A stretch of 64,000 bases of DNA from Candidatus Saccharimonadota bacterium. Lineage in GTDB: Bacteria; Patescibacteriota; Saccharimonadia; Saccharimonadales; UBA10212. Each line of letters starts with the position of its first letter. The first letter of the stretch is position 1. The stretch spans positions 102,931-166,930 of the forward strand of contig JACPKF010000001.1 in assembly GCA_016187125.1 (NCBI GenBank), read 5' to 3'. Both the position numbers and the translations under genes were made by a program. The notes under the pieces were generated by a model. That model was not told where the DNA came from and made no database searches. It saw only the letters and a list, made by a program, of their open reading frames with translations. Of this stretch, positions 16,466-28,038 are shown one piece after another.

Positions 16466-17434
16466 ATGACCGCCAAAATAAAAAGACCGCGCCGTTCTTC
16501 AAGCCACACTCGCCCCCACCGACCAAAGGGTCTCAGCACCAGAGTCTTTGAGAGAGTTTACTGGCCCTATTTACCCCTGATTTTAGTAATTAGTCTGCTG
16601 ACAACCTTTAGTTTCCAAAATCATGTTCTGCCCTCAGCTTTTCATAACCCTATTGCCAAAGTTTTGTCTTACGCAACTCAGATGAGCGTCAAAGACTTAC
16701 TAACGGAAACTAATGACATGCGAGCTTTAAACAACGTTAGCTCCTTAAAACTGAATCAGAACTTAAACGCTGCGGCCCAAGCCAAGGCTAACGACATGGC
16801 AAAGCGTAATTATTGGAGTCATACAACCCCGGACGGCAATCAACCCTGGATCTTTGTGGCAAATCAGAATTACTCTTACCAAAAATTGGGAGAGAACTTA
16901 GCAGCCGGCTTTGGAGATTCTAAAGCTGCAGTCAAAGGTTGGATGTCGAGCGCCGGCCATCGCCAGAATTTACTTGACCCCTTATTTTCGGAGGCTGGGT
17001 TCGGCTTTGCTAACAATCCGGATTATGCCGCCAATGGCGGTCCGATGACTATTGTCGTAGCCTTTTATGGCCGACCCACCAGTGCTCCAGTTGTCGCTAC
17101 TAAAGACAACTCAACGCTTAATCTACAATCCCAAGATAAATCTCAGCCAGTTACTAGTCTTAGCGACATTCAAGGTAGCACTACTACTAAAACCACTTCT
17201 AGAGCTCAGGTCGCCCTGGCAAACTTGCCTGTAGCCGGTGTGGCTACAACAACAGTAGTGCTGCTGGCCGCAGCCGCTTTGGGTATTTGGATTGGTCGCC
17301 ATGCTCTAGCTGTCCGCAGGGCTTTAAGAAAAGGCGAAACCTACGTTGCGACACACCCTGCAGTGGACTTCAGTTTACTGGTTATTGCCGGCTTGTCGCT
17401 GTTGTTAAGCCGAGCTGCTGGTTTTATTACCTAA
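16466..17434 (+). CDS. CAP/SCP (PR-1-like) domain protein with N- and C-terminal TM segments
   Basis: AAQAKANDMAKRNYWSHTTPDG ... GENLAAGF ... AVKGWMSSAGHRQNLL ... AGFG (YkwD-like CAP motifs). Ser/Thr linker and C-terminal hydrophobic helices. Confidence 0.8.
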   Translation: MTAKIKRPRRSSSHTRPHRPKGLSTRVFERVYWPYLPLILVISLLTTFSFQNHVLPSAFHNPIAKVLSYATQMSVKDLLTETNDMRALNNVSSLKLNQNLNAAAQAKANDMAKRNYWSHTTPDGNQPWIFVANQNYSYQKLGENLAAGFGDSKAAVKGWMSSAGHRQNLLDPLFSEAGFGFANNPDYAANGGPMTIVVAFYGRPTSAPVVATKDNSTLNLQSQDKSQPVTSLSDIQGSTTTKTTSRAQVALANLPVAGVATTTVVLLAAAALGIWIGRHALAVRRALRKGETYVATHPAVDFSLLVIAGLSLLLSRAAGFIT

Positions 17435-20400
17435 CCACTACATTGGTTGAGCCGAACACGGCTGCCAAATCCCTCAAGCTTGATTCATTCACAGCCACAG
17501 TCTGCGGTAGTTTTATGGCTTGTTTGACAGCTGCTTCACCTGTAACAACTACTACTTCGGTATCTCCACGGTGAATGTCCAGTTTTTCTTTCAATCTAAT
17601 TAATAGTGATTGATTATCACTGCTTTCGATCCGAATATAAAGCCGCTTGGCTACTTGAGCAGTTGCGTCTCGTAGGGGTCTTGGCAGTTGATTATTAGAC
17701 TGTGGGAGTTTTGACGATCCTAAAAAAGACTGTTTCTGGCCGTTACTTTTGTAAACGCTAGCCTCCTTTAGTGAGACTGGCTTTAAGTCCTCGGCAATGA
17801 CTTTAAGCTCCTCAAGACTGGCGCCGGAACGCCTATCACGTGAACTTAGTTTCCCCTGCACAATAATCACACCATCACGATTAAGTAGGCTGCCAGTCTG
17901 CGCATAAAGTTTGGGAAAGACAACTATCTCTACTTCGCCACTGGCGTCCGCAACCTTAACAAAAGCCATTTGAACGCCGCTTTTGGTAGTGATTTGGCGT
18001 ACGTCCGAAACTATGCCGCCAATAGCCACTGGCGATCCGTCCATCTCTGGTTTAAGACTCACTATCTCTAGAGTCTTCTCTGAAAGAAAATTAGCGTACG
18101 GCTCTAGCGGGTGGGCGCTTAAATATAAACCGAGCAGTTCGCGCTCCCATCTTTGCTGCTCGCTCCTACTAAAAACTACGTCCGATTTTTCTAACCTTAG
18201 GCTAGGACTAGATACCTCTGAAACCTGGCTTAAGCTAAATAGATCGACTTGCCCACTGGCAGCATCCTTTTGTAATCTGTTAGCCAGCGCCAGGATGTTA
18301 TCAACATTATTAAGCAGCAGACTGCGCTCGAAAAAACTATCAAACGCCCCAGCTTTAATCAAGCTCTCCAGAACTTTTCGGTTAACTGCCGCTACGCTGA
18401 CATGCTTACAAAATTCGTCCAATGAAGTAAATTTACCGCCGGCTTTGTCACGACCAACAATGATTTCCTCGGCTGCTCCATAACCAACATTCTTGATGGC
18501 GTCCAAGCCAAAACGAATCTGATGAGCGCTAGGAACGACAGCGAATTCATGAAAAGATTGATTGATATCCGGCGGTAATACCTCAATACCCATGTTTTTG
18601 CACTCGGCAATTTCAATCGCTAGGCGATCTATATTATCGTAATCGCTAGTCATTAAGGCCGCCATAAAAGCCTCGGGGTAGTGGGCCTTTAAGTAGGCTG
18701 TTTGGTAAGCAATCAGGCCATAACAAGCAGCATGGCTTTTATTGAAGCAGTAGGCCGCAAAATCTTCCAGCTGATTCCAGAATTTTTCCATGGCCTGGCG
18801 ATCAGCCTTGGATGTTTTAATTGCTCCCTCTATAAAGTCAGATTTTAGTTTTGTCAAAACTTCCGGATTCTTTTTGCCAATAGCTTTTCTAAGGGTGTCG
18901 GCCTGCCCGCCGCTAAAGCCGCACAAATCCTTACTAATCTGCATTACTTGCTCTTGATAAACCATTACGCCGTAAGTTTTTTCAAGCGCTGATTTCATTA
19001 TGGCGTGTGGGTATGCAATTTTTTTGAGGCCATGTTTACGGACAATAAAATCATCGATCCATTGCATTGGGCCTGGTCGGTAAAGCGCCACCATAGCCAC
19101 AATGTCTTCAAAAACTGTCGGCCTGAGTTTTTTTAAATAACGACGCATCCCCGTGGACTCCAGTTGAAAAACGCCAGTAGTTTCCCCCCTTTGCAGTAAA
19201 CTATAAGTCTTTTTATCATCCAGCGCGATCTTAGCAATATCAATATCAAGGCCATGGACCTTTTTGACGATTCGCAGAGCATTTCTAATAGTGGTTAGGT
19301 TAGACAGTCCCAAAAAATCAATTTTGAGAAGCCCCAAATCTTCTACCGGATTCATTGAATACTGCGTAGCAACAGCTCCGTTTTGAGCCATTTCCAGCGG
19401 CGCGTACTCGACAATATCGTCCGGTGCTATAACTACTCCAGCGGCGTGTACACCATGACTACGAATAGTGCCCTCAAGCTTGACGGCTAAATCAAAAACC
19501 CGAGCCGCTTGAGGATTGATTCTATTTTCCTTTTGAAGTTCCGGAACATTTTTAATATGCGAAGCCAGCGGCGTGTGGCGACCTTGAATTGGCGGTGGAA
19601 TCATCTTGGCTAAACGATCGGCTTCGGCATATGGTACTTGCAGGACTCTAGCCACGTCGCGTACCGAGTTGCGAGCCGCCATCCGCCCAAAGGTTACGAT
19701 ATTAGCTACTCGATCACGACCGTACTTCTGTACGCAATAGCTAATAACTTCATCGCGACGGGAATCCTGAATATCAATATCCATATCCGGCATACTGATA
19801 CGGTCCGGATTCAAAAAACGCTCGAACAATAGGTCATACTTTAATGGGTCAAGATCTGTAATCCGGGTGGCATAAGCCAGCAGTGATCCGGCGGTACTGC
19901 CGCGTCCGGGTCCAAAGACGATCCCCTTATCCTTACCCCAGTTTATAAAGTCGGCAGCTATCAAAAAATAACCGCTGAATCCCATTTTTTCAACAACGCC
20001 TAGTTCGAAGTCAGCTCTTTGCTTAATTTCATGGCTTAACTTTTTTTTAGATGCAGCCACAGATAAAGTCTTGGATTTTTCATAATTGACACCGCCGTAA
20101 CGCCAAGCTAAGCCTTGCCAGACCATTTTTTCAAGCAAACTTTTTTCTGTCTCGCCTCTCTGCAACGGAAATTTTGGCAACAGAATTCCACCAAGTTCAA
20201 TGTCTAATTGGCAACGGTCGGCTATGGCTTTGGTATTGGCTATTAGCTCAGGATTGGACTCCCCCCAGCGCTTAATAACATTTCTGGGATCCATGACCTG
20301 CAGTTCAAAATCCTTTAGACTAAAGCGACCTTCCTCGGATAGAAATGAGCTTGTTTGGACGCATAATAGGATTTCGTGAGCTTCTTGATCGGCGGCTTTT

Positions 20401-21074
20401 AAATAATGGGCGTCACAGGTTACGACAGCTGGAATCTTTAGCTCACCAGCTAAACGAAGTAGCTCCTTGTTGACATCTTTTTGCTCGTCCCAAGCCGTTG
20501 GATGATTAGCGTGCCCATGGTCCATCAGCTCGATGTAATAACGGTCACCAAAAATTTTCTGATACCACATGGCGATTTTTTTGGCTTGTTCGTATTGCCC
20601 CTGGCGCAATGCATCACTAACTTCACCACCCATGCAGCCAGAGAGCACTATTAAACCTTCATTGTATTCTTCCAAAAAATCATGGTCAATCCGGGGCCGG
20701 TAATAAAAACCTTCTAGACTGGCCAAACTAGACAGGCGCATCAAATTTTGGTAGCCCTTATTATTCATGCTTAGCAGGGTCAGATGGTAGTTTTGCCTAT
20801 CTTTAACTGGATCTTTGTCCGAATACTTACGCGGAGCAACATAGGCTTCCATGCCGATAAGCGGTTTTAGGCCGGCGCCCCGAGCCTCTTTATAAAATTC
20901 AATCGCGCCACTCATCAGTCCATGATCGGTAATAGCCACCGCTTCCATGCCAAGTTCTTTGACATAATTAATAAGTTCCGGCACTTTTGTCAGTCCATCG
21001 AGCAAGGAGTATTGTGTGTGAGTGTGCAAGTGCACGAAATCCGATGGTTTTAGACGTTTTTTTTGTGCTCCCAT
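17427..21074 (-). CDS. dnaE: DNA polymerase III alpha subunit
   Basis: PHP domain FVHLHTHTQYSLLDG, polymerase core (GRGSTAGSLLAYA, PDMDIDI), OB-fold region. 1215 aa. Confidence 0.96.
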   Translation of the reverse strand: MGAQKKRLKPSDFVHLHTHTQYSLLDGLTKVPELINYVKELGMEAVAITDHGLMSGAIEFYKEARGAGLKPLIGMEAYVAPRKYSDKDPVKDRQNYHLTLLSMNNKGYQNLMRLSSLASLEGFYYRPRIDHDFLEEYNEGLIVLSGCMGGEVSDALRQGQYEQAKKIAMWYQKIFGDRYYIELMDHGHANHPTAWDEQKDVNKELLRLAGELKIPAVVTCDAHYLKAADQEAHEILLCVQTSSFLSEEGRFSLKDFELQVMDPRNVIKRWGESNPELIANTKAIADRCQLDIELGGILLPKFPLQRGETEKSLLEKMVWQGLAWRYGGVNYEKSKTLSVAASKKKLSHEIKQRADFELGVVEKMGFSGYFLIAADFINWGKDKGIVFGPGRGSTAGSLLAYATRITDLDPLKYDLLFERFLNPDRISMPDMDIDIQDSRRDEVISYCVQKYGRDRVANIVTFGRMAARNSVRDVARVLQVPYAEADRLAKMIPPPIQGRHTPLASHIKNVPELQKENRINPQAARVFDLAVKLEGTIRSHGVHAAGVVIAPDDIVEYAPLEMAQNGAVATQYSMNPVEDLGLLKIDFLGLSNLTTIRNALRIVKKVHGLDIDIAKIALDDKKTYSLLQRGETTGVFQLESTGMRRYLKKLRPTVFEDIVAMVALYRPGPMQWIDDFIVRKHGLKKIAYPHAIMKSALEKTYGVMVYQEQVMQISKDLCGFSGGQADTLRKAIGKKNPEVLTKLKSDFIEGAIKTSKADRQAMEKFWNQLEDFAAYCFNKSHAACYGLIAYQTAYLKAHYPEAFMAALMTSDYDNIDRLAIEIAECKNMGIEVLPPDINQSFHEFAVVPSAHQIRFGLDAIKNVGYGAAEEIIVGRDKAGGKFTSLDEFCKHVSVAAVNRKVLESLIKAGAFDSFFERSLLLNNVDNILALANRLQKDAASGQVDLFSLSQVSEVSSPSLRLEKSDVVFSRSEQQRWERELLGLYLSAHPLEPYANFLSEKTLEIVSLKPEMDGSPVAIGGIVSDVRQITTKSGVQMAFVKVADASGEVEIVVFPKLYAQTGSLLNRDGVIIVQGKLSSRDRRSGASLEELKVIAEDLKPVSLKEASVYKSNGQKQSFLGSSKLPQSNNQLPRPLRDATAQVAKRLYIRIESSDNQSLLIRLKEKLDIHRGDTEVVVVTGEAAVKQAIKLPQTVAVNESSLRDLAAVFGSTNVVVR

Positions 21075-21204: not shown

Positions 21205-21615
21205 TTAGGACTTGAAATATCTACTGAGATTTTTGGCGGCTAGCTTGGCTTGTTTGATGGCTTTACTTAGTTGCGGATCATCGGCTTCACCGGATTTTAC
21301 AGCTTTAAGTACGTGTAGGGCTTTATTTTGAGCGTCTTTAGCCCGCACCACTGTTTCGTTAAATTCAGCTCTGGCTTTAGAACCAAGCTCCAAAGTTTTG
21401 GTTTTGGCGGTTTTTATGAGCTCGCCTAGCTCGTCGCTAGCTTTTTGTAGTTGCTCCTGGGCGTCATCCTTGAGGTCCTCAGCTTTTTCGGCGATATCTT
21501 CCCGAGTTTCCTTACCACTTTTGGGCGCCGTTAATATTCCAGCTAGATAACCGCCAATTCCAGCTATAAGCGCCCCAATCGCCAGTTTTCGGCCTGTATG
21601 TTCGTCCTGTGTCAT
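21205..21615 (-). CDS. YtxH-domain membrane protein
   Basis: N-terminal TM helix followed by APKSGKETREDIAEKAEDLKDDAQEQL (YtxH-like helical repeats). Strong SD AGGAGG 8 nt upstream. Confidence 0.75.
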   Translation of the reverse strand: MTQDEHTGRKLAIGALIAGIGGYLAGILTAPKSGKETREDIAEKAEDLKDDAQEQLQKASDELGELIKTAKTKTLELGSKARAEFNETVVRAKDAQNKALHVLKAVKSGEADDPQLSKAIKQAKLAAKNLSRYFKS

Positions 21616-21747: not shown

Positions 21748-21966
21748 CTATTTCTTTCTAGAGACTATTTTACTAATTATTCTAATAAATGGAGCAGCCG
21801 TTACGCCCCGTTTGACTGCTGTGGCGGCTGACTCAACGCTACTAGCCACTTCCTCGGCCCGCTTAAGCACTCTGATCAGATAAATCAGAGCGATGCTCAA
21901 GATTATTAAGAAAACTGCTAGCACCGAACTGACAATAATTAAAAGAGCCGAGACTGCGCTATCCAT
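21748..21966 (-). CDS. Small membrane protein (DUF948-like)
   Basis: 72 aa with one TM helix followed by an amphipathic helix. Sits next to a YtxH gene, as in the Firmicutes ytxG/ytxH pairs. Confidence 0.55.
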   Translation of the reverse strand: MDSAVSALLIIVSSVLAVFLIILSIALIYLIRVLKRAEEVASSVESAATAVKRGVTAAPFIRIISKIVSRKK

Positions 21967-22154: not shown

Positions 22155-23603
22155 TTACAAACCAAGTTGTTTTTTAATAAGCTTTTTAGCAATTTCTGGA
22201 TTGGCTTGACCCTTGCTTTTAGCCATAACCTGACCGACTAAAAAGCCGATGGCTTTTAGCTCACCGTTTTTGACGTCTTGGGCAGGTTTGGGATTCTCGG
22301 CTATAACTTCAGCGACGATTTTCTCAATTTCAGCCTCATCAGAAACTTGCAGCCAATCTCTTATTCTGGCAATCTCATTAGGATCTCCGCCGACGACAAC
22401 AATCTCGAACACTATATTTTTAGCTGTAGTTGAGTTTATTTTGTTGTCATCTAGCATATGCGAGACCATCGTTAGAGCTTTTTCACTTAGTTTTGCGGTA
22501 TCCCAACTAATTTTTCCTAGATTAACTAGTGACTGAACATCTATTGCTAGCCAGTTTGCAATTCTTCTAGCGTCTTTTATCGAGATGTATTTATTTGCCA
22601 TTATCCTAGACATAAAACTACTAACTTGCGGGTTATCAAGAAGTGATTCAATTAGGCCCTGAGGGAGGTCTAATTTTTCAAACTTCATCCTTAAATCATT
22701 TGGTAGAGAAGGCATTTTAGTCTTAGTTTTCTTTATATAGTCATCATCGAGCTCTATAGGTGGGATGTCCGGCTCGGGCATGTAGCGATAATCCTGGGCC
22801 TCCTCTTTGCTACGCTGGGCAAGACTTTTTTGTTTGGCTTCGTCCCAACCGCGGGTTTCTTGGACAACTGGTTGGCCTTTTTTTTGTAGCTCGGTTTGAC
22901 GCTTGATTTCATAATCAACTGCCGCTTCGACGCTGCGGAAACTATTTAGATTTTTAATTTCGCTGCGTATGCCTAGCCTGTCCGGATTTTCACTAACACT
23001 GACATTAACATCAAACCGCACGTGTCCGTGGTAGAGATCTCCGTCCGTCACCCCAGCGTATTTCATGGCTAGCCAAAGCTCCCGAGCGTAAGCCTTAGCT
23101 TCGGCGGCACTATGGATATCCGGCATACTAACGATTTCCAGTAGCGGCGTTCCAGCTCGGTTAAAATCAACTAAGGAATAATCTGCACCAGCTGGATGGG
23201 TATTTTTGCCAGCGTCCTCTTCCAGATTAGCCCGCTCGATCCTAACGCATTTTTTAGTGCCATTAACTTCAATATGCAAGTGGCCACCGGCAATAATCGG
23301 CGTCTCATATTGAGTAATCTGATAACCTTTTGGCAAATCCGGATAGAAGTAGTGTTTACGTTCAAAATAACTAAACTTCTGAGGTTCAGTCCCAAGGGCA
23401 ACCGCCGCCCTGGCGCAAAGTTCGATAGCGGCTTCATTGAGTACTGGCAGAGCGCCCGGCATACCGACACAGATATGACTAATAAGTGTATTTGGCGGCG
23501 CCTGACGGGCGTCATTGTCAACAGCCGCGAATAACTTAGTTTTGGTTTTAAGCTGGACGTGAGTTTCGATACCAATCGTCGGCGTGTATTCGCTAACTCT
23601 CAT
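22155..23603 (-). CDS. gatB: Asp/Glu-tRNA amidotransferase subunit B
   Basis: GIETHVQLKT...MPGALPVLN, FDVNVS, GatB/YqeY C-terminal domain. ATG at 23603 has GGAGG 7 nt upstream, so it is preferred over 23615. Confidence 0.95.
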   Translation of the reverse strand: MRVSEYTPTIGIETHVQLKTKTKLFAAVDNDARQAPPNTLISHICVGMPGALPVLNEAAIELCARAAVALGTEPQKFSYFERKHYFYPDLPKGYQITQYETPIIAGGHLHIEVNGTKKCVRIERANLEEDAGKNTHPAGADYSLVDFNRAGTPLLEIVSMPDIHSAAEAKAYARELWLAMKYAGVTDGDLYHGHVRFDVNVSVSENPDRLGIRSEIKNLNSFRSVEAAVDYEIKRQTELQKKGQPVVQETRGWDEAKQKSLAQRSKEEAQDYRYMPEPDIPPIELDDDYIKKTKTKMPSLPNDLRMKFEKLDLPQGLIESLLDNPQVSSFMSRIMANKYISIKDARRIANWLAIDVQSLVNLGKISWDTAKLSEKALTMVSHMLDDNKINSTTAKNIVFEIVVVGGDPNEIARIRDWLQVSDEAEIEKIVAEVIAENPKPAQDVKNGELKAIGFLVGQVMAKSKGQANPEIAKKLIKKQLGL

Positions 23604-23741
23604 ACACGCCTCCAATTAACAATTTACAGTTTTCAATTTTCAATAATTTATCATTGATCAATTTACAATTTTTCGAACAATGGATAATGGAAAATGGAAA
23701 ATTAATGGTAAATGGTAAATGGTAAATGGTAAATGACTCCT
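23604..23741. repeat. AT-rich heptamer-periodic imperfect hairpin spacer inside the gat operon
   Basis: (aatggta/aatggaa) repeats, e.g. aatggataatggaaaatggaaaattaatggtaaatggtaaatggtaaatggtaaatg, face a partly complementary arm cagttttcaattttcaataatttatcattg. Confidence 0.7.
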
Positions 23742-24152
23742 TCATAGGGCTCCTAAATCCTTAAGCCCTTGCCTAATTCCGGCCAGAGCGTCCTTGGCCT
23801 CGTTTTTCTTGAGCCTGATACTGGGCTCATGCACCAAACGATTGCGCAGCTTATGGGCGTACCAAACAGCGTCATTGTTAGTCAGAGTTCGTTGAGCGGC
23901 TACTAAACGCTCACCCATAGCTCTGCCTTTGTATTTTTGTTTTTTTAGAGCCTCATCCAGTAACTTATCGGCGTCAATTACAGCCAGAATCATCCCGTCG
24001 TAGCCAGTTCTAACTCTAGTCAAAAGCTCTAACCACCGATTTTCAAAATATTTCTTATTTAGACTTCGTGGTTTTTTGCGGTTCAGACGTATCAGAACTG
24101 CCAGCACTATAACGCCCATGACGATAGCGCCAACCAAAAATAAAATGGTCAT
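23742..24152 (-). CDS. Membrane-anchored hypothetical protein with RNxxxH (HEPN-type) motif
   Basis: N-terminal TM helix (ILFLVGAIVMGVIVLAVLI), then an all-helical 100-aa domain containing AHKLRNRLVHE. Start overlaps the gatA stop (TAATG). Confidence 0.45.
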   Translation of the reverse strand: MTILFLVGAIVMGVIVLAVLIRLNRKKPRSLNKKYFENRWLELLTRVRTGYDGMILAVIDADKLLDEALKKQKYKGRAMGERLVAAQRTLTNNDAVWYAHKLRNRLVHEPSIRLKKNEAKDALAGIRQGLKDLGAL

Positions 24153-25576
24153 TAGTTTAATTCCTCAAAGGCTTTGGCAATCTCCAGAAGCTGCTTGTCA
24201 GCTCGCTGAGGAGCAATGATTTGCAGCCCGACCGGCAAGCCCTGACTTTGGCCTGCGGGAATACTGATTGCCGGATTGCCAGATACATTGGCTGCTACTA
24301 GTAATATGTCCGACAAGTACATTTGCAGAGGGTTGCCCGTTTTGGCGCCGATTTTAAAAGCCACCGTCGGCGCGGTCGGACCTAGCAGAAAATCATAAAG
24401 TTGAAAAGCTTTGGCAAACTCATTAATAATTTTGGTTCGGACCTTTTGGGCTTTTTTGTAATAGGCGTCGTAGTAACCGCTGGAAAGCACGTGAGTACCT
24501 ATCATGATACGTCGTTTAGCCTCAGTACCAAAGCCTTGCTGGCGACTCAAAAAATAACTGTCTTCCAGATTTTTGGTTTCCCTAGCCGTGTGGCCATAGC
24601 GCTGACCATCATAGCGCGCCAAGTTGCTGCTTACCTCCGCCGGGCAAACGATGTAATAGACAGCTAGCGCCAAAGACAGGCTAGGTAAGCTGACTTCGCT
24701 GATATTGGCCCCAGCCTTTTCCAATTTTTTAATAGCTTGATCTATTACTGTTCGGACGCCAGGCTCCAAGCCTTCGCCCATATATTCCTTGATAACACCA
24801 ATTTTGGCTTTTCGGATTTCGGATTTCGGATTTCGGATTTCGTATCCGTTAGAGTCTTTTTCGATGGTTGTGCTATCCATGGCATCTTTACCGGACATTA
24901 CATCCATCACAAGTGCTGCATCGGCTATATTCCGTGTCAGCGGTCCAACAACATCAGTGCTGGAGGCCATAGCCACAATACCGCTGCGACTAATTAGCCC
25001 GTAGGTTGGTTTATAGCCAACGACACCGCAAAAACTGGCTGGCAGGCGAACCGATCCTCCGGTATCCGTACCTAGCGCAAAGGGAACAATGTCAAGGGCT
25101 ACAGCTGCTGCCGAACCGCCAGAACTGCCACCCGGCACCCTGGTTTTATCATGTGGATTTTTGGTGGTAAAAAAGTCGCTGTTCTCGGTACTACTGCCAT
25201 GCGCCCAAGCATCAAGATTGGCTTTAGCGACGCAAATTGCGCCCTCTAACTCAAGTTTTTCTATGGCCGTTGCTTGATAAGGCGCTTCAAATTCTTTGAG
25301 CATATTTGAAGCGGCCGTTGTGCGGCCGCCAAATGTCAAAAAATTGTCTTTAGCAATGAACGGCACGCCAGCTAGACGACCGACCCTTTCGCCTTGTTTA
25401 ATCCTTCCATCTATTTCCTCAGCCCTTTTAAGAGCACGTTCCATAGGAACCGAAATAATTGCCGCAAAATCTTTATGCTTCTCTACTTCCTGCAGCGCCT
25501 GCTTTACATTACCCTCAGCTGATGTTTGGCCTGATTGCACACTGGCCGCAATTTCATCAATACTTGGCCAACTCAC
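24152..25576 (-). CDS. gatA: Glutamyl-tRNA(Gln) amidotransferase subunit A
   Basis: Amidase signature GGSSGGSAAAVA and catalytic Ser/Lys context (FIAKDNF, GTDTGGSVRLPASFCG). Confidence 0.96.
   Translation of the reverse strand: MSWPSIDEIAASVQSGQTSAEGNVKQALQEVEKHKDFAAIISVPMERALKRAEEIDGRIKQGERVGRLAGVPFIAKDNFLTFGGRTTAASNMLKEFEAPYQATAIEKLELEGAICVAKANLDAWAHGSSTENSDFFTTKNPHDKTRVPGGSSGGSAAAVALDIVPFALGTDTGGSVRLPASFCGVVGYKPTYGLISRSGIVAMASSTDVVGPLTRNIADAALVMDVMSGKDAMDSTTIEKDSNGYEIRNPKSEIRKAKIGVIKEYMGEGLEPGVRTVIDQAIKKLEKAGANISEVSLPSLSLALAVYYIVCPAEVSSNLARYDGQRYGHTARETKNLEDSYFLSRQQGFGTEAKRRIMIGTHVLSSGYYDAYYKKAQKVRTKIINEFAKAFQLYDFLLGPTAPTVAFKIGAKTGNPLQMYLSDILLVAANVSGNPAISIPAGQSQGLPVGLQIIAPQRADKQLLEIAKAFEELN
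24813..24840. repeat. Tandem heptanucleotide repeat (CGGATTT x4) inside gatA
   Basis: Four perfect copies plus a degenerate fifth (cgtatcc). Encodes EIRNPKSEIRKAK in a variable loop just before the conserved KIGVIKEY. Confidence 0.85.
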
Positions 25577-25863
25577 AGGACTCGCCCCACCTTAAATTGG
25601 TTTTTTTCAACTGCCGGCGCGCCTTTGAGCAGATCGGCTGGCTTGGCCTGGTAGTCCTTGGTCTTATCCTCGCGCATAACATTTTTTAAGCCAGTGACTT
25701 GATAAGTCGGTTCTAGACCTTTAGTGTCAGCTTTGTCAAGCTGCTTGACGTAATCCAAGATCTCTGCCAGCTCGGTCCGAAAGCTTTCGATTTCTGCCTC
25801 GGTTAATTTCAGCCGGCTTAAGTGCGCCAATTTAAGTACGGCGTCGCGAGTCAATTTACCCAT
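25573..25863 (-). CDS. gatC: Asp/Glu-tRNA amidotransferase subunit C
   Basis: LTRDAVLKLAHLSRLKLTEAEIESF (GatC). Start set at the ATG at 25863 (MGKLTRD). The ORF-track extension to 25884 lies in the adjacent element. Confidence 0.88.
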   Translation of the reverse strand: MGKLTRDAVLKLAHLSRLKLTEAEIESFRTELAEILDYVKQLDKADTKGLEPTYQVTGLKNVMREDKTKDYQAKPADLLKGAPAVEKNQFKVGRVL

Positions 25864-25937
25864 CCCGATAGAAGTCCAATTCACTACCAGTAAATTGGCA
25901 GGTTTTATCTTTGATAAAAAACTTACTTCTAACGGGA
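25863..25937. mobile_element. MITE-like palindromic element, copy D (short form)
   Basis: Minus strand: ATGAA|TCCCGTTAGAAGTAAG ... GGACTTCTATCGGGA|TGGG. Termini match copy C (TCCCGTTAGAGGTAAG ... GGACTTCTAGCGGGA). The terminal A is the first base of the gatC ATG. Confidence 0.65.
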
Positions 25938-26067: not shown

Positions 26068-28038
26068 TTACATTTTAGATTTAATTTCACTTATCAAATC
26101 CCTCAACTCTGCTGCTTTCTCAAACTCCAAGTTGGCGGCCGCCAGGTCCATCTGGGCCGTCAAGTCGTGGATCAAGTGTTTATACTCGTCTTTGGGTATT
26201 TTTTTGAGATCCAATTTGATCCGCCGGCTAGCGGATTCTTCTTTGACAGCGCGTGGCAGCATTTCACTAACTTCACGGCTAATGCTGCGCGGCGTGATGT
26301 CATGTTTAAGATTATATTCTTCTTGAATCAGTCGGCGCCGGTTGGTCTCGTCAATTGCCCGTTGCATACTGCCGGTAACATGGTCGGCATACATAATGAC
26401 TCTCCCCTGCTTGTGGCGAGCCGCTCTACCGACAGTCTGAATTAAGGCTTGCTGGGAGCGCAAAAAACCTTCCTTGTCGGCATCCATGATAGCCACTAAA
26501 CTGACTTCCGGCAGATCAAGACCTTCGCGCAGCAAGTTAATACCCACCAACACGTCGTAAACTCCTAGTCGCAGGTCACGCAAAATGTCAGTCCGCTCCA
26601 GTGTTTCAATTTCGCTGTGAATGTAGGCTACCTTCATATTTAGTTCCTGCAGATACTCAGCCAAGTCTTCAGCCATCCGTTTGGTTAATGTTGTTACCAG
26701 CACTCTCTGGCCCCGCCCGACTGTGTCCCGAATTTCGGCAATCAAATCATCGATTTGGCCGTCTATTGGCCGGATTTCTACTTTTGGATCCACTAGCCCA
26801 GTTGGACGGATAACTTGCTGAACTGGTTCGGGGCTGCGCGATAGCTCATATTCGGCCGGCGTGGCGCTGACGTAAATCGTTTGGTTCATATGACGCTCAA
26901 ACTCCGTAAAGGTTAGCGGCCGATTATCAAGCGCGCTAGGCAAGCGAAAACCATGTTCCACCAGTACTTCCTTGCGTGCCCGGTCGCCGTTGTACATACC
27001 ACGCACCTGGGGTACGCTCATGTGCGATTCGTCGATAAACAATAGATAATCATCTGGGAAATAGTCTATCAACGTTGCTGGTTGCTCGCCTTCTTCGCGG
27101 TTGGTCAGGTAGCGACTGTAGTTTTCAATGCCCTTCACAAAGCCAGTTTGTTCTAGCATTTCCAGGTCAAACTTGACGCGCTGTTCCAGGCGCTGGGCTT
27201 CTAGCAGCTTGCCTTCCTTCTTAAAGTAGGCCAGGCGCTGCTCAGTTTCCTGGCGAATTTTGCCTAGCGCCAGCTTGAGTTTGGCTTCCGGCGTCACGTA
27301 GTGGCTGCCTGGGAATATGCTCAAGTTGGTTAAATTCTTCTCGATTTCACCAGTCAGGGGATTTATTTGGGTAATACGTTCCAGCTCGTCGCCAAAAAAT
27401 TCGATGCGGTAGGCCACTTCTTCACCGGTTGGGTAAACATCAACCACATCGCCTCTGACCCGGAAGGTGCTACGCTGAAAATCAATGTCGTTACGGCGGT
27501 ATTGGATATCGGTCAGTCGGCGTAAGAACTTATCGCGCAGCAGTCGCTCGCCCACTTTGAGTTTTATGGTCATGCCGGCGTAATCTTCCACCGAGCCAAT
27601 GCCGTAGATGCAGGAAACGCTGGCAACAATAATTACATCGCGGCGCGAAAGCAGGGCCGCTGTGGCGGAGTGGCGCAAACGCTCGATTTCTTCGTTTATG
27701 TCGCTGTCTTTTTCGATGTAGGTATCGGTGCGCGGCATGTAGGCTTCTGGCTGGTAATAATCAAAGTAGCTGACAAAATAATGCACGGCATTATCCGGGA
27801 AAAACATCTTAAATTCGTTATAAAGCTGAGCTGCTAGGGTCTTGTTGTGGCTAAGCACCAAGGTTGGTTTTTGAATGTTGGCAATAACGTTGGCCATCGT
27901 AAAAGTTTTGCCGCTGCCAGTTACGCCAAGTAGTGTTTGGTGGCTAAGCTTTTGCTGAAGACCTTTAGTCAATTGAGCAATCGCCGCTGGCTGATCGCCG
28001 GTCGGTTTATAGTCAGCCTTAAGAACAAACTTAGCCAT
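26068..28038 (-). CDS. uvrB: Excinuclease ABC subunit B
   Basis: [12 protein letters not shown] Walker A, helicase motifs (DESH), C-terminal UVR domain ([10 protein letters not shown]). Confidence 0.97.

Follow-up and report, generated by a model that had tools for sequence, protein, structure and literature searches.

The window analysed here, a stretch of 64,000 nt from a Candidatus Saccharimonadota genome (assembly GCA_016187125.1, contig JACPKF010000001.1), carries on its minus strand a 136-amino-acid (aa) open reading frame (ORF), called X below, which lies between two subunit genes of the tRNA-dependent amidotransferase. X occupies 23742..24152, starts with ATG and is 100% identical to HYW35_00670, a hypothetical protein of a Candidatus Saccharibacteria metagenome-assembled genome (MAG). 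It is preceded by uvrB (26068-28038), by gatC (25573..25884), the first gene of the operon, and by gatA (24152..25576), which encodes the glutaminase subunit; it is followed by gatB (22155..23615), a 72-aa ORF with a single transmembrane (TM) helix (21748-21966), a gene for a YtxH-family protein with an N-terminal TM helix (21205-21615; PF12732, E=1e-17) and dnaE (17427-21074), all on the same strand. GatC, GatA and GatB each score above the NCBIfam equivalog cut-off (TIGR00135 at E=1.4e-20, TIGR00132 at 570 bits and NF004012 at 553 bits, respectively), and a promoter scan found a promoter-like site 5′ of gatC (25984-25955). A search for paralogues of X in the window found none, and there is no nucleotidyltransferase or antitoxin gene among these neighbours, as an earlier reading of this DNA from its sequence alone (the sequence-only reading) had also noted.

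The stop codon of gatA (TAA) and the start codon of X (ATG) have base 24152 in common (GAG GAA TTA AAC TAA TG ACC ATT), and a Shine-Dalgarno-like GAGGA lies 9 nt 5′ of the X start, from which the protein begins MTILFLVGAIVMGVIVLAVLIRLNRKKPRSLNKK. The sequence-only reading had taken X to be translationally coupled to gatA, and the ORF, the TAATG junction and the coupling are all borne out. Through this coupling, X is made together with GatA.

A predicted HEPN fold behind a membrane anchor

We examined the layout of X in AlphaFold2 (AF2) models built on family alignments, which reached a predicted local distance difference test score (pLDDT) of 95.5 for the full-length protein and, for residues 30-136, a pLDDT of 97.9 with a predicted template modelling score (pTM) of 0.90. 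The N-terminal helix (residues 2-23; 24084..24149) coincides with the single strongly hydrophobic segment of the protein (residues 3-21, maximum mean Kyte-Doolittle value 3.25), which bears out the one TM helix proposed earlier. Since seven of the 15 residues after this helix are K or R, the positive-inside rule places the C-terminal ~105 residues in the cytoplasm. The helix would thus anchor X in the cytoplasmic membrane, with a basic four-helix domain (22 K+R against 13 D+E) facing the cytoplasm, and X would probably dimerise, by analogy with characterised HEPN proteins.

The motif that first drew attention to X, an R-N-x3-H within AHKLRNRLVHE (residues 99-109), is of no value on its own, because the bare pattern is at chance level in the long ORFs of the window (one occurrence in 18,889 aa, where 0.88 would be expected). 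It becomes meaningful through its conservation and through its canonical HEPN position in a high-confidence model. HEPN domains are defined as all-alpha domains of 100-120 aa in which two alpha-hairpins form a four-helix bundle; helix 3 terminates in an Rx4-6H motif that extends into the loop and whose R is followed by a polar residue (N, D or H), and a conserved acidic residue of helix 2, typically within Ex3[KR], faces the motif (PMC3710099). The modelled helices of X are the TM helix, H1 (33-47), H2 (51-71), H3 (93-108) and, after a loop, H4 (116-132), so that the hairpins H1-H2 and H3-H4 span residues 33-132 (23757..24056). R103-N104-R-L-V-H108 (23829..23846, CGC AAT CGT TTG GTG CAT) closes H3 as a canonical Rx4H with N104 as the polar residue, and H100 (23853..23855) lies one helical turn before it. 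The acidic residue expected opposite the motif is D62 in H2 (23967..23969), with D66-x3-K70 next to it, and the H2-H3 insert (72-92), which contains a short helix (79-85), the conserved G76 and R82 of a GERL sequence, agrees with the published definition as well (PMC3710099). The conserved polar cluster of X coincides with the canonical cleft for RNA cleavage or RNA binding in HEPN proteins.

When both models were compared with the PDB by Foldseek, HEPN proteins filled nearly all of the top 10 places, including HepT SO_3166 (5yep, 7bxo, 6m6u, 6m6w), a HEPN-MNT protein (8xeh), AF_0298 (2hsb) and 1wty, with probabilities of 0.9-0.99 and query TM-scores (TMq) of 0.6-0.7 for the soluble domain. 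Two results count against the assignment: the Foldseek E-values are all weak, at about 0.2, and neither X nor the family members tested reach the threshold of a curated HEPN profile. Of the structure and profile check suggested for X, the structural half therefore came out as HEPN and the curated Pfam half did not. Among 50 members, sub-threshold matches were found to HEPN_RiboL-PSP (eight members; the best, at 7.5e-5 and 23.1 bits against a cut-off of 28.4, aligns across the whole soluble domain) and to Hypoth_Ymh (five members, best 1.9e-4; E=0.1 for window X itself), and HEPN_Swt1 and HEPN_Cthe2314 also gave sub-threshold matches within the family. In one member (P0266), a local Pfam match at residues 155-181 covers the RN...H at 157-162. 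The profiles of DUF4145 (PF13643) and of DUF86/NTase_sub_bind gave no match to window X at E≤10, the latter also being absent from the list of 25 families matched by the 50 members; no model of Pfam, NCBIfam, PADLOC or PHROG was passed by the family proteins tested; and sequence (phmmer) and profile (hmmsearch) searches of the PDB returned chance-level matches only and no HEPN protein. The likeness to DUF4145, HEPN_RiboL-PSP, Hypoth_Ymh and Swt1-like proteins centres on the R-N-x3-H helix, and TM fusions like that of X are on record for DUF4145 and Swt1-like members; these families belong mostly to restriction-modification or conflict systems, in contrast to the housekeeping, gatA-linked X family.

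Published data on Southlakia epibionticum contain a similar annotation. A 420-nt hypothetical gene between its GatA and GatB genes, SEML1_0535 (Wang et al., Cell 2023, PMC10633639), appears to be the orthologue of X, as judged from position, size and DPAM domain assignment and not from sequence alignment. DPAM assigned it to the ECOD domain e1wtyA1 with a probability of 0.99 (PMC10633639, Table S2), and ProtNLM named it a 'DUF4145 domain-containing protein' (score 0.98), with no Pfam hit (PMC10633639). On this evidence, we accept X as a member of the HEPN superfamily at fold level (Pfam clan CL0291; ECOD 'Nucleotidyltransferase substrate binding subunit/domain'), while by sequence it belongs to no curated HEPN family. 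The only published trace of the X protein is an unnamed row in supplementary tables, in which the HEPN fold was assigned automatically (PMC10633639), and we found no paper in the searched library that links HEPN domains with GatCAB or discusses the X family.

Conservation of X and its link to gatA

The X family comprises 2884 clusters at 90% identity and 1948 at 50% identity (E≤1e-3), and every named member is assigned to Saccharibacteria or to the 'Patescibacteria group'. Residue conservation was counted over 316 family proteins. The most constant positions are D62 (314/316), H100 (313/316, the remaining three being gaps), G76 (313/316), W97 (312/316) and A61 (307/316), followed by W40 (297/316) and R82 (296/316); the motif residues R103 (290/316), N104 (285/316) and H108 (282/316) come after them. 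The family has E, T or D at position 109, and window X reads H108-E109-P110. The least biased sample for motif retention, the top 150 representatives at 50% identity, includes 135 with a full domain; RNxxxH is intact in 110 of these, and R103 or H108 is lost in the other 25. The conservation of R and H among orthologues was thus borne out for most of the family, except that 21 of the 25 motif-less representatives form a single neighbour-joining clade, a large one within Saccharibacteria.

A search with one protein of this clade (P0134) found AHNL[AS]KK[IL]x[D/E/A/N] in place of AHKLRNxxxH in 111 of its 120 best matches, K101 being replaced by N, R103 by A or S and N104 by K, with H108 variable. 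In these matches W40, D62, G76, W97 and H100 are invariant (120/120), and A61 (119/120) and R82 (118/120) nearly so. Since P0134 occupies the same gat slot (L093, 5001-5420, in the order uvrB...gatC-gatA-X-gatB-YtxH-dnaE with overlapping gene ends), the motif-less proteins are true orthologues of X. A subclade of 114-118 aa has lost the TM helix as well: in P0359 (114 aa) a stop codon stands directly before the ATG, and the gene still lies between gatA and gatB (L096, 5001-5345). Hence, parts of the family do without the canonical RNase dyad and parts without the membrane anchor, but the D62/R82/W97/H100 core is not dispensable; because the motif-less clade retains the gene in its slot, a conserved core role cannot depend on the dyad. 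By analogy with HEPN proteins of the AbiV and AF_0298 type, which use an alternative upstream His (PMC3710099), the motif-less clade, with H100 plus K104, could still be catalytic. AF_0298 (2hsb) is among the top structural matches to X, and the motif-less clade resembles these proteins in keeping another His (H100) with a basic residue (K104) nearby; the alternative His of AF_0298 and AbiV comes from the H2-H3 insert, however, whereas H100 lies in helix 3 and the motif Arg has been lost too.

The synteny survey suggested for relatives of the window confirmed the operon. A scan of species-representative genomes with a 12-sequence alignment gave at least 582 loci, and the best 80, all on Saccharibacteria-type contigs, were analysed; because the search pattern included the RN motif, these loci cannot be used to judge motif retention. 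All 80 species genomes have gatC-gatA-X-gatB, usually within uvrB...YtxH...dnaE. The end of gatA overlaps the start of X by 4 nt (ATGA) in 56 of 78 loci, by 1 nt, as here, in four, and by 10-25 nt in at least five more, and some overlap is present in at least 65 of the 78. The distance from the X stop to the gatB start has a median of 14 nt and is 30 nt or less in 56 of 77 loci. The median identity to the window protein is 78% for UvrB, 71% for DnaE, 67% for GatA, 57% for GatB, 56% for X, 55% for GatC and 42% for YtxH, and X is therefore as conserved as GatB and GatC. Two loci with uvrB-gatC-gatA-X-gatB (L022, which continues to YtxH-dnaE, and L030; 52-83% identity to the window proteins) come from MAGs labelled Candidatus Binatia and Candidatus Limnocylindrales, and are probably Saccharibacteria contigs mis-binned into those MAGs.

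We also scanned metagenomes for divergent members from the Candidate Phyla Radiation (CPR), with a pattern from helix 2 (IIEADKLLD) that is neutral to gene context and to the RN motif. Among 80 such loci, gatA lies within 400 nt upstream of X in 61; in about 11 the upstream sequence is too short for a call, at least two of them visibly overlapping gatA, and about four have no gatA within 3.5 kb. gatB follows X in only seven of the 80, the commonest downstream genes being an Lgt-like membrane protein gene and a thioredoxin-reductase-like gene. Five divergent CPR loci from outside Saccharibacteria (L098, L104, L109, L112, L123) show the order gatC-gatA-X and then Lgt-like (~250 aa) and thioredoxin-reductase-like (~305 aa) genes, with gatB elsewhere. 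The gatA-X pair persists in members with 34-40% identity: one locus reads ligA-gatC-gatA-X followed by a radical-SAM gene on the opposite strand, gatB having gone from the neighbourhood (L086), and two others read gatA-X-lgt (L090) and gatA-X (L092), likewise with no gatB in the neighbourhood. The association with amidotransferase genes proposed by the sequence-only reading is thus real and conserved across hundreds of CPR lineages, but, because gatB does not adjoin X in most lineages outside Saccharibacteria, the conserved partner of X is gatA (gatC-gatA-X) and not the gatA/gatB pair. This persistence with overlapping codons, despite the separation of gatB, is the strongest clue to the function of X, and points to co-production with GatA and probably to a shared process. 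In summary, X is inherited vertically and belongs to the core genes of Saccharibacteria and of other Patescibacteria.

Transposon sequencing (Tn-seq) in Southlakia is consistent with such a status. SEML1_0535 was called GD/GD/ES over three time points, its normalised reads falling from 126.6 to 5.9 and then 2.8, and it is flagged 'core family' and 'Patescibacteria enriched' (PMC10633639, Table S1), labels taken from the family classification of Meheust et al.; essential genes made up 73 of the 116 that are enriched (PMC10633639). In the same data GatA and GatB were called GD/ES/ES and GatC GD/GD/GD, and the YtxH gene was non-essential (PMC10633639).

These data bear on the possibility that X acts as a toxin or as a defence RNase of the HEPN type, resembling HepT or an abortive-infection module, and is kept inactive by some antitoxin or by its sequestration at the membrane. 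In favour of this, window X has an intact catalytic motif, and the closest solved structures are HepT/DUF86 toxins of the MntA-HepT system (Shewanella SO_3166; 5yep, 7bxo, 6m6u), which like X are small single-domain HEPN proteins with Rx4H about 30-35 residues from the C-terminus. HepT, however, carries Rx4HxY, in which the Tyr is AMPylated by the MNT antitoxin encoded by the adjoining gene (MntA), and is sporadic or mobile, whereas X reads RNxxxHE(P), with no Tyr at the AMPylation position, has a TM anchor, is not accompanied by an MNT or any other antitoxin gene, and belongs to the syntenic core. The HepT-like RNxxxHxY of the sequence-only reading did not survive this comparison, and a HepT/DUF86 identity was rejected, because X lacks a Tyr after its His, an MNT partner and any DUF86 match. 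PADLOC returned no families for the four members tested and the PHROGs matches were not significant; together with the conserved synteny and the vertical inheritance, this led us to reject a defence module. A toxin gene would also be expected to tolerate insertions, and those in the apparent Southlakia orthologue were depleted. Since X is single-copy, syntenic and vertically inherited in 80/80 species genomes, is conserved to the level of GatB and has an apparent orthologue that is depleted in Southlakia, it has the profile of a housekeeping gene and not of a toxin or defence gene; we regard the toxin explanation as hardly credible.

Relatives of X occur in other contexts as well. Longer paralogues (176-217 aa) have a DUF8128 membrane protein on one side and a VirD4/TrwB/DUF87-like ATPase on the other (L085, L088), in a three-gene membrane module with overlapping gene ends (L088, 3549-7000) that encodes a DUF8128 protein of 481 aa with several TM helices and a P-loop ATPase of 490 aa; no literature on DUF8128 was found in the searched library. 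RNxxxH is kept in all 46 retrieved relatives of one such paralogue (P0251), for which alone the DUF8128 context was checked. Another paralogue stands next to a TPR-like membrane protein and a methionine aminopeptidase, with no gatA nearby. Because paralogues occupy these contexts, the X module is not exclusive to Gat.

This, and the intact motif, would fit an X that is an independent membrane-tethered, metal-independent HEPN RNase for general processing or decay of mRNA, rRNA or tRNA, a functional analogue of the membrane-bound RNases Y and E or of Ire1 and C6orf70 in the endoplasmic reticulum (ER), and that would use the gatCA operon for co-expression only. The full catalytic constellation (R-N-x3-H plus the helix-2 Asp) is present in window X and in ~80% of lineage representatives, and TM-anchored HEPN RNases have precedents in C6orf70, Ire1 and STY4199. 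We also looked for specific co-evolution of X with the Gat subunits by comparing distance matrices (mirror-tree, controlled for UvrB); in 15 loci it was not detected, the partial r being 0.26-0.46 with GatA, GatB and GatC and 0.55 with the control, YtxH. However, the overlapping gatA-X pair survives to ~35% identity and through the relocation of gatB, which is unusual for a hitch-hiker, and a major clade has lost R103/H108 yet kept the gene and its position. We consider an independent RNase doubtful, if still a serious competitor.

The loss of the dyad could instead mean that X is a non-catalytic scaffold or adaptor, whose HEPN fold binds a protein or a small ligand such as a nucleotide, and no RNA, and which tethers or regulates enzymes at the membrane, namely GatA here and the VirD4-like ATPase in the paralogues. 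The large clade that lacks the dyad retains D62/R82/W97/H100, the same module sits between DUF8128 and the ATPase, and KNTase, GlnD/GlnE and Swt1 provide known examples of HEPN domains without catalysis. Yet RNxxxH, with its polar Asn, is present in every one of the P0251 relatives, and its retention in all distant gatA-linked members examined points to selection on a catalytic-type site; the domain is strongly basic, and the loss of the TM anchor in a subclade makes tethering unlikely as the essential role. A purely adaptor function is accordingly improbable in our view.

Proposed role of X in the amidotransferase pathway

The explanation that we put first, with about even confidence, is that X is a CPR-specific housekeeping HEPN protein that serves as an RNA- or tRNA-binding accessory factor of the GatCA(B) pathway and possibly as an RNase. 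The cleft formed by D62 and D66 (helix 2), R82 (insert) and W97, H100, R103, N104 and H108 (helix 3) would most likely bind RNA. Because X follows gatA throughout the CPR, this RNA would most likely be the tRNA substrates or products of GatCAB. In this way X might assist or police the indirect Asn/Gln-tRNA pathway, for example by recruitment, localisation or quality control. Where RNxxxH is intact, as in window X, RNA cleavage by the metal-independent HEPN mechanism, which leaves a 2′,3′-cyclic phosphate, may be a further activity.

Several points weigh against this proposal, besides the weak structural E-values and the unreached profile thresholds. The family includes a large clade without R103 and H108 and a subclade without the TM helix too, the module is shared with contexts outside Gat, and the mirror-tree comparison gave a higher value for YtxH than for any Gat subunit. 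The depletion of SEML1_0535 rests on eight input insertions and may be polar on gatB. Contact of X with GatCAB, RNA binding, catalysis and dimerisation are all inferred.

A more far-reaching form of the accessory-factor proposal makes X a fourth, CPR-specific component of the amidotransferase ('GatCA-X'), in which a membrane-tethered HEPN dimer would hold GatCAB or the transamidosome together with its tRNAs at the membrane and, where RNxxxH is intact, would cleave unamidated (mischarged) Asp-tRNAAsn/Glu-tRNAGln or their tRNAs. We think this unlikely; if true, HEPN chemistry of the toxin type would serve a housekeeping role, in a nuclease for translation fidelity or quality control. Small proteins that aid a two-step tRNA-dependent conversion offer a functional analogy for X as an accessory factor, namely Hp0100 of H. 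pylori (QueH), which stimulates GatCAB and the transamidosome, and SepCysE of methanogens. Both are unrelated to X in fold and sequence, and the link of X to GatCAB is one of gene context. Among eukaryotic proteins, Ire1 and C6orf70/ERMARD resemble X in having a single TM helix with a HEPN-type domain on the cytoplasmic side, and act in housekeeping or stress RNA processing and not as toxins; X differs from them in being bacterial, in its 136 aa, in lacking a kinase or lumenal sensor domain and in its tRNA-amidation context.

To our knowledge, bacterial HEPN domains have been described almost only in conflict systems, that is, toxin-antitoxin and abortive-infection systems, CRISPR ancillary nucleases and restriction-modification islands. 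What is new here is a CPR-specific, gatA-coupled, membrane-anchored housekeeping HEPN family with natural motif-less and anchor-less derivatives. X is apparently a core and probably an essential gene, enriched in the CPR and coupled to gatA across most of the radiation. The CPR accounts for a considerable part of bacterial diversity, and most of its essential 'dark matter' genes lack an explanation. If the proposed role is correct, X would be a bacterial counterpart of the eukaryotic housekeeping HEPN RNases Las1, Ire1 and C6orf70, and, should it act together with GatCAB, it would add a new accessory factor to the indirect Asn/Gln-tRNA pathway of the CPR. The natural series of proteins with the motif intact, with the motif replaced and with both motif and TM helix lost is suited to comparative work in genetically tractable Saccharibacteria.

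The spacer between X and gatB

The spacer between X and gatB (23616..23741, minus strand) contains a heptamer tandem repeat, and a promoter and terminator scan predicted no terminator on this strand of it and found nothing beyond background. The repeat (23679-23735) begins 3 nt past the X stop and reads, on the coding strand, (CATTTAC)x4, then CATTAATTTTC, CATTTTC and CATTATC. The repeat interrupts assemblies, since three independent contigs assembled from short reads of the same organism (L002-L004) each stop within it, and its length may vary. In orthologous loci the spacer is usually no longer than 30 nt, and gatB overlaps X in many relatives, unlike in this genome. The listed gatB ORF starts at a TTG (23615), and an ATG at 23601-23603 has a GGAGG at good spacing upstream; homologues start to align at about query residue 5-10, in agreement with this ATG, which is probably the true start and gives gatB its own ribosome-binding site in this genome. 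Further downstream, the YtxH gene holds the slot before dnaE in most related genomes.

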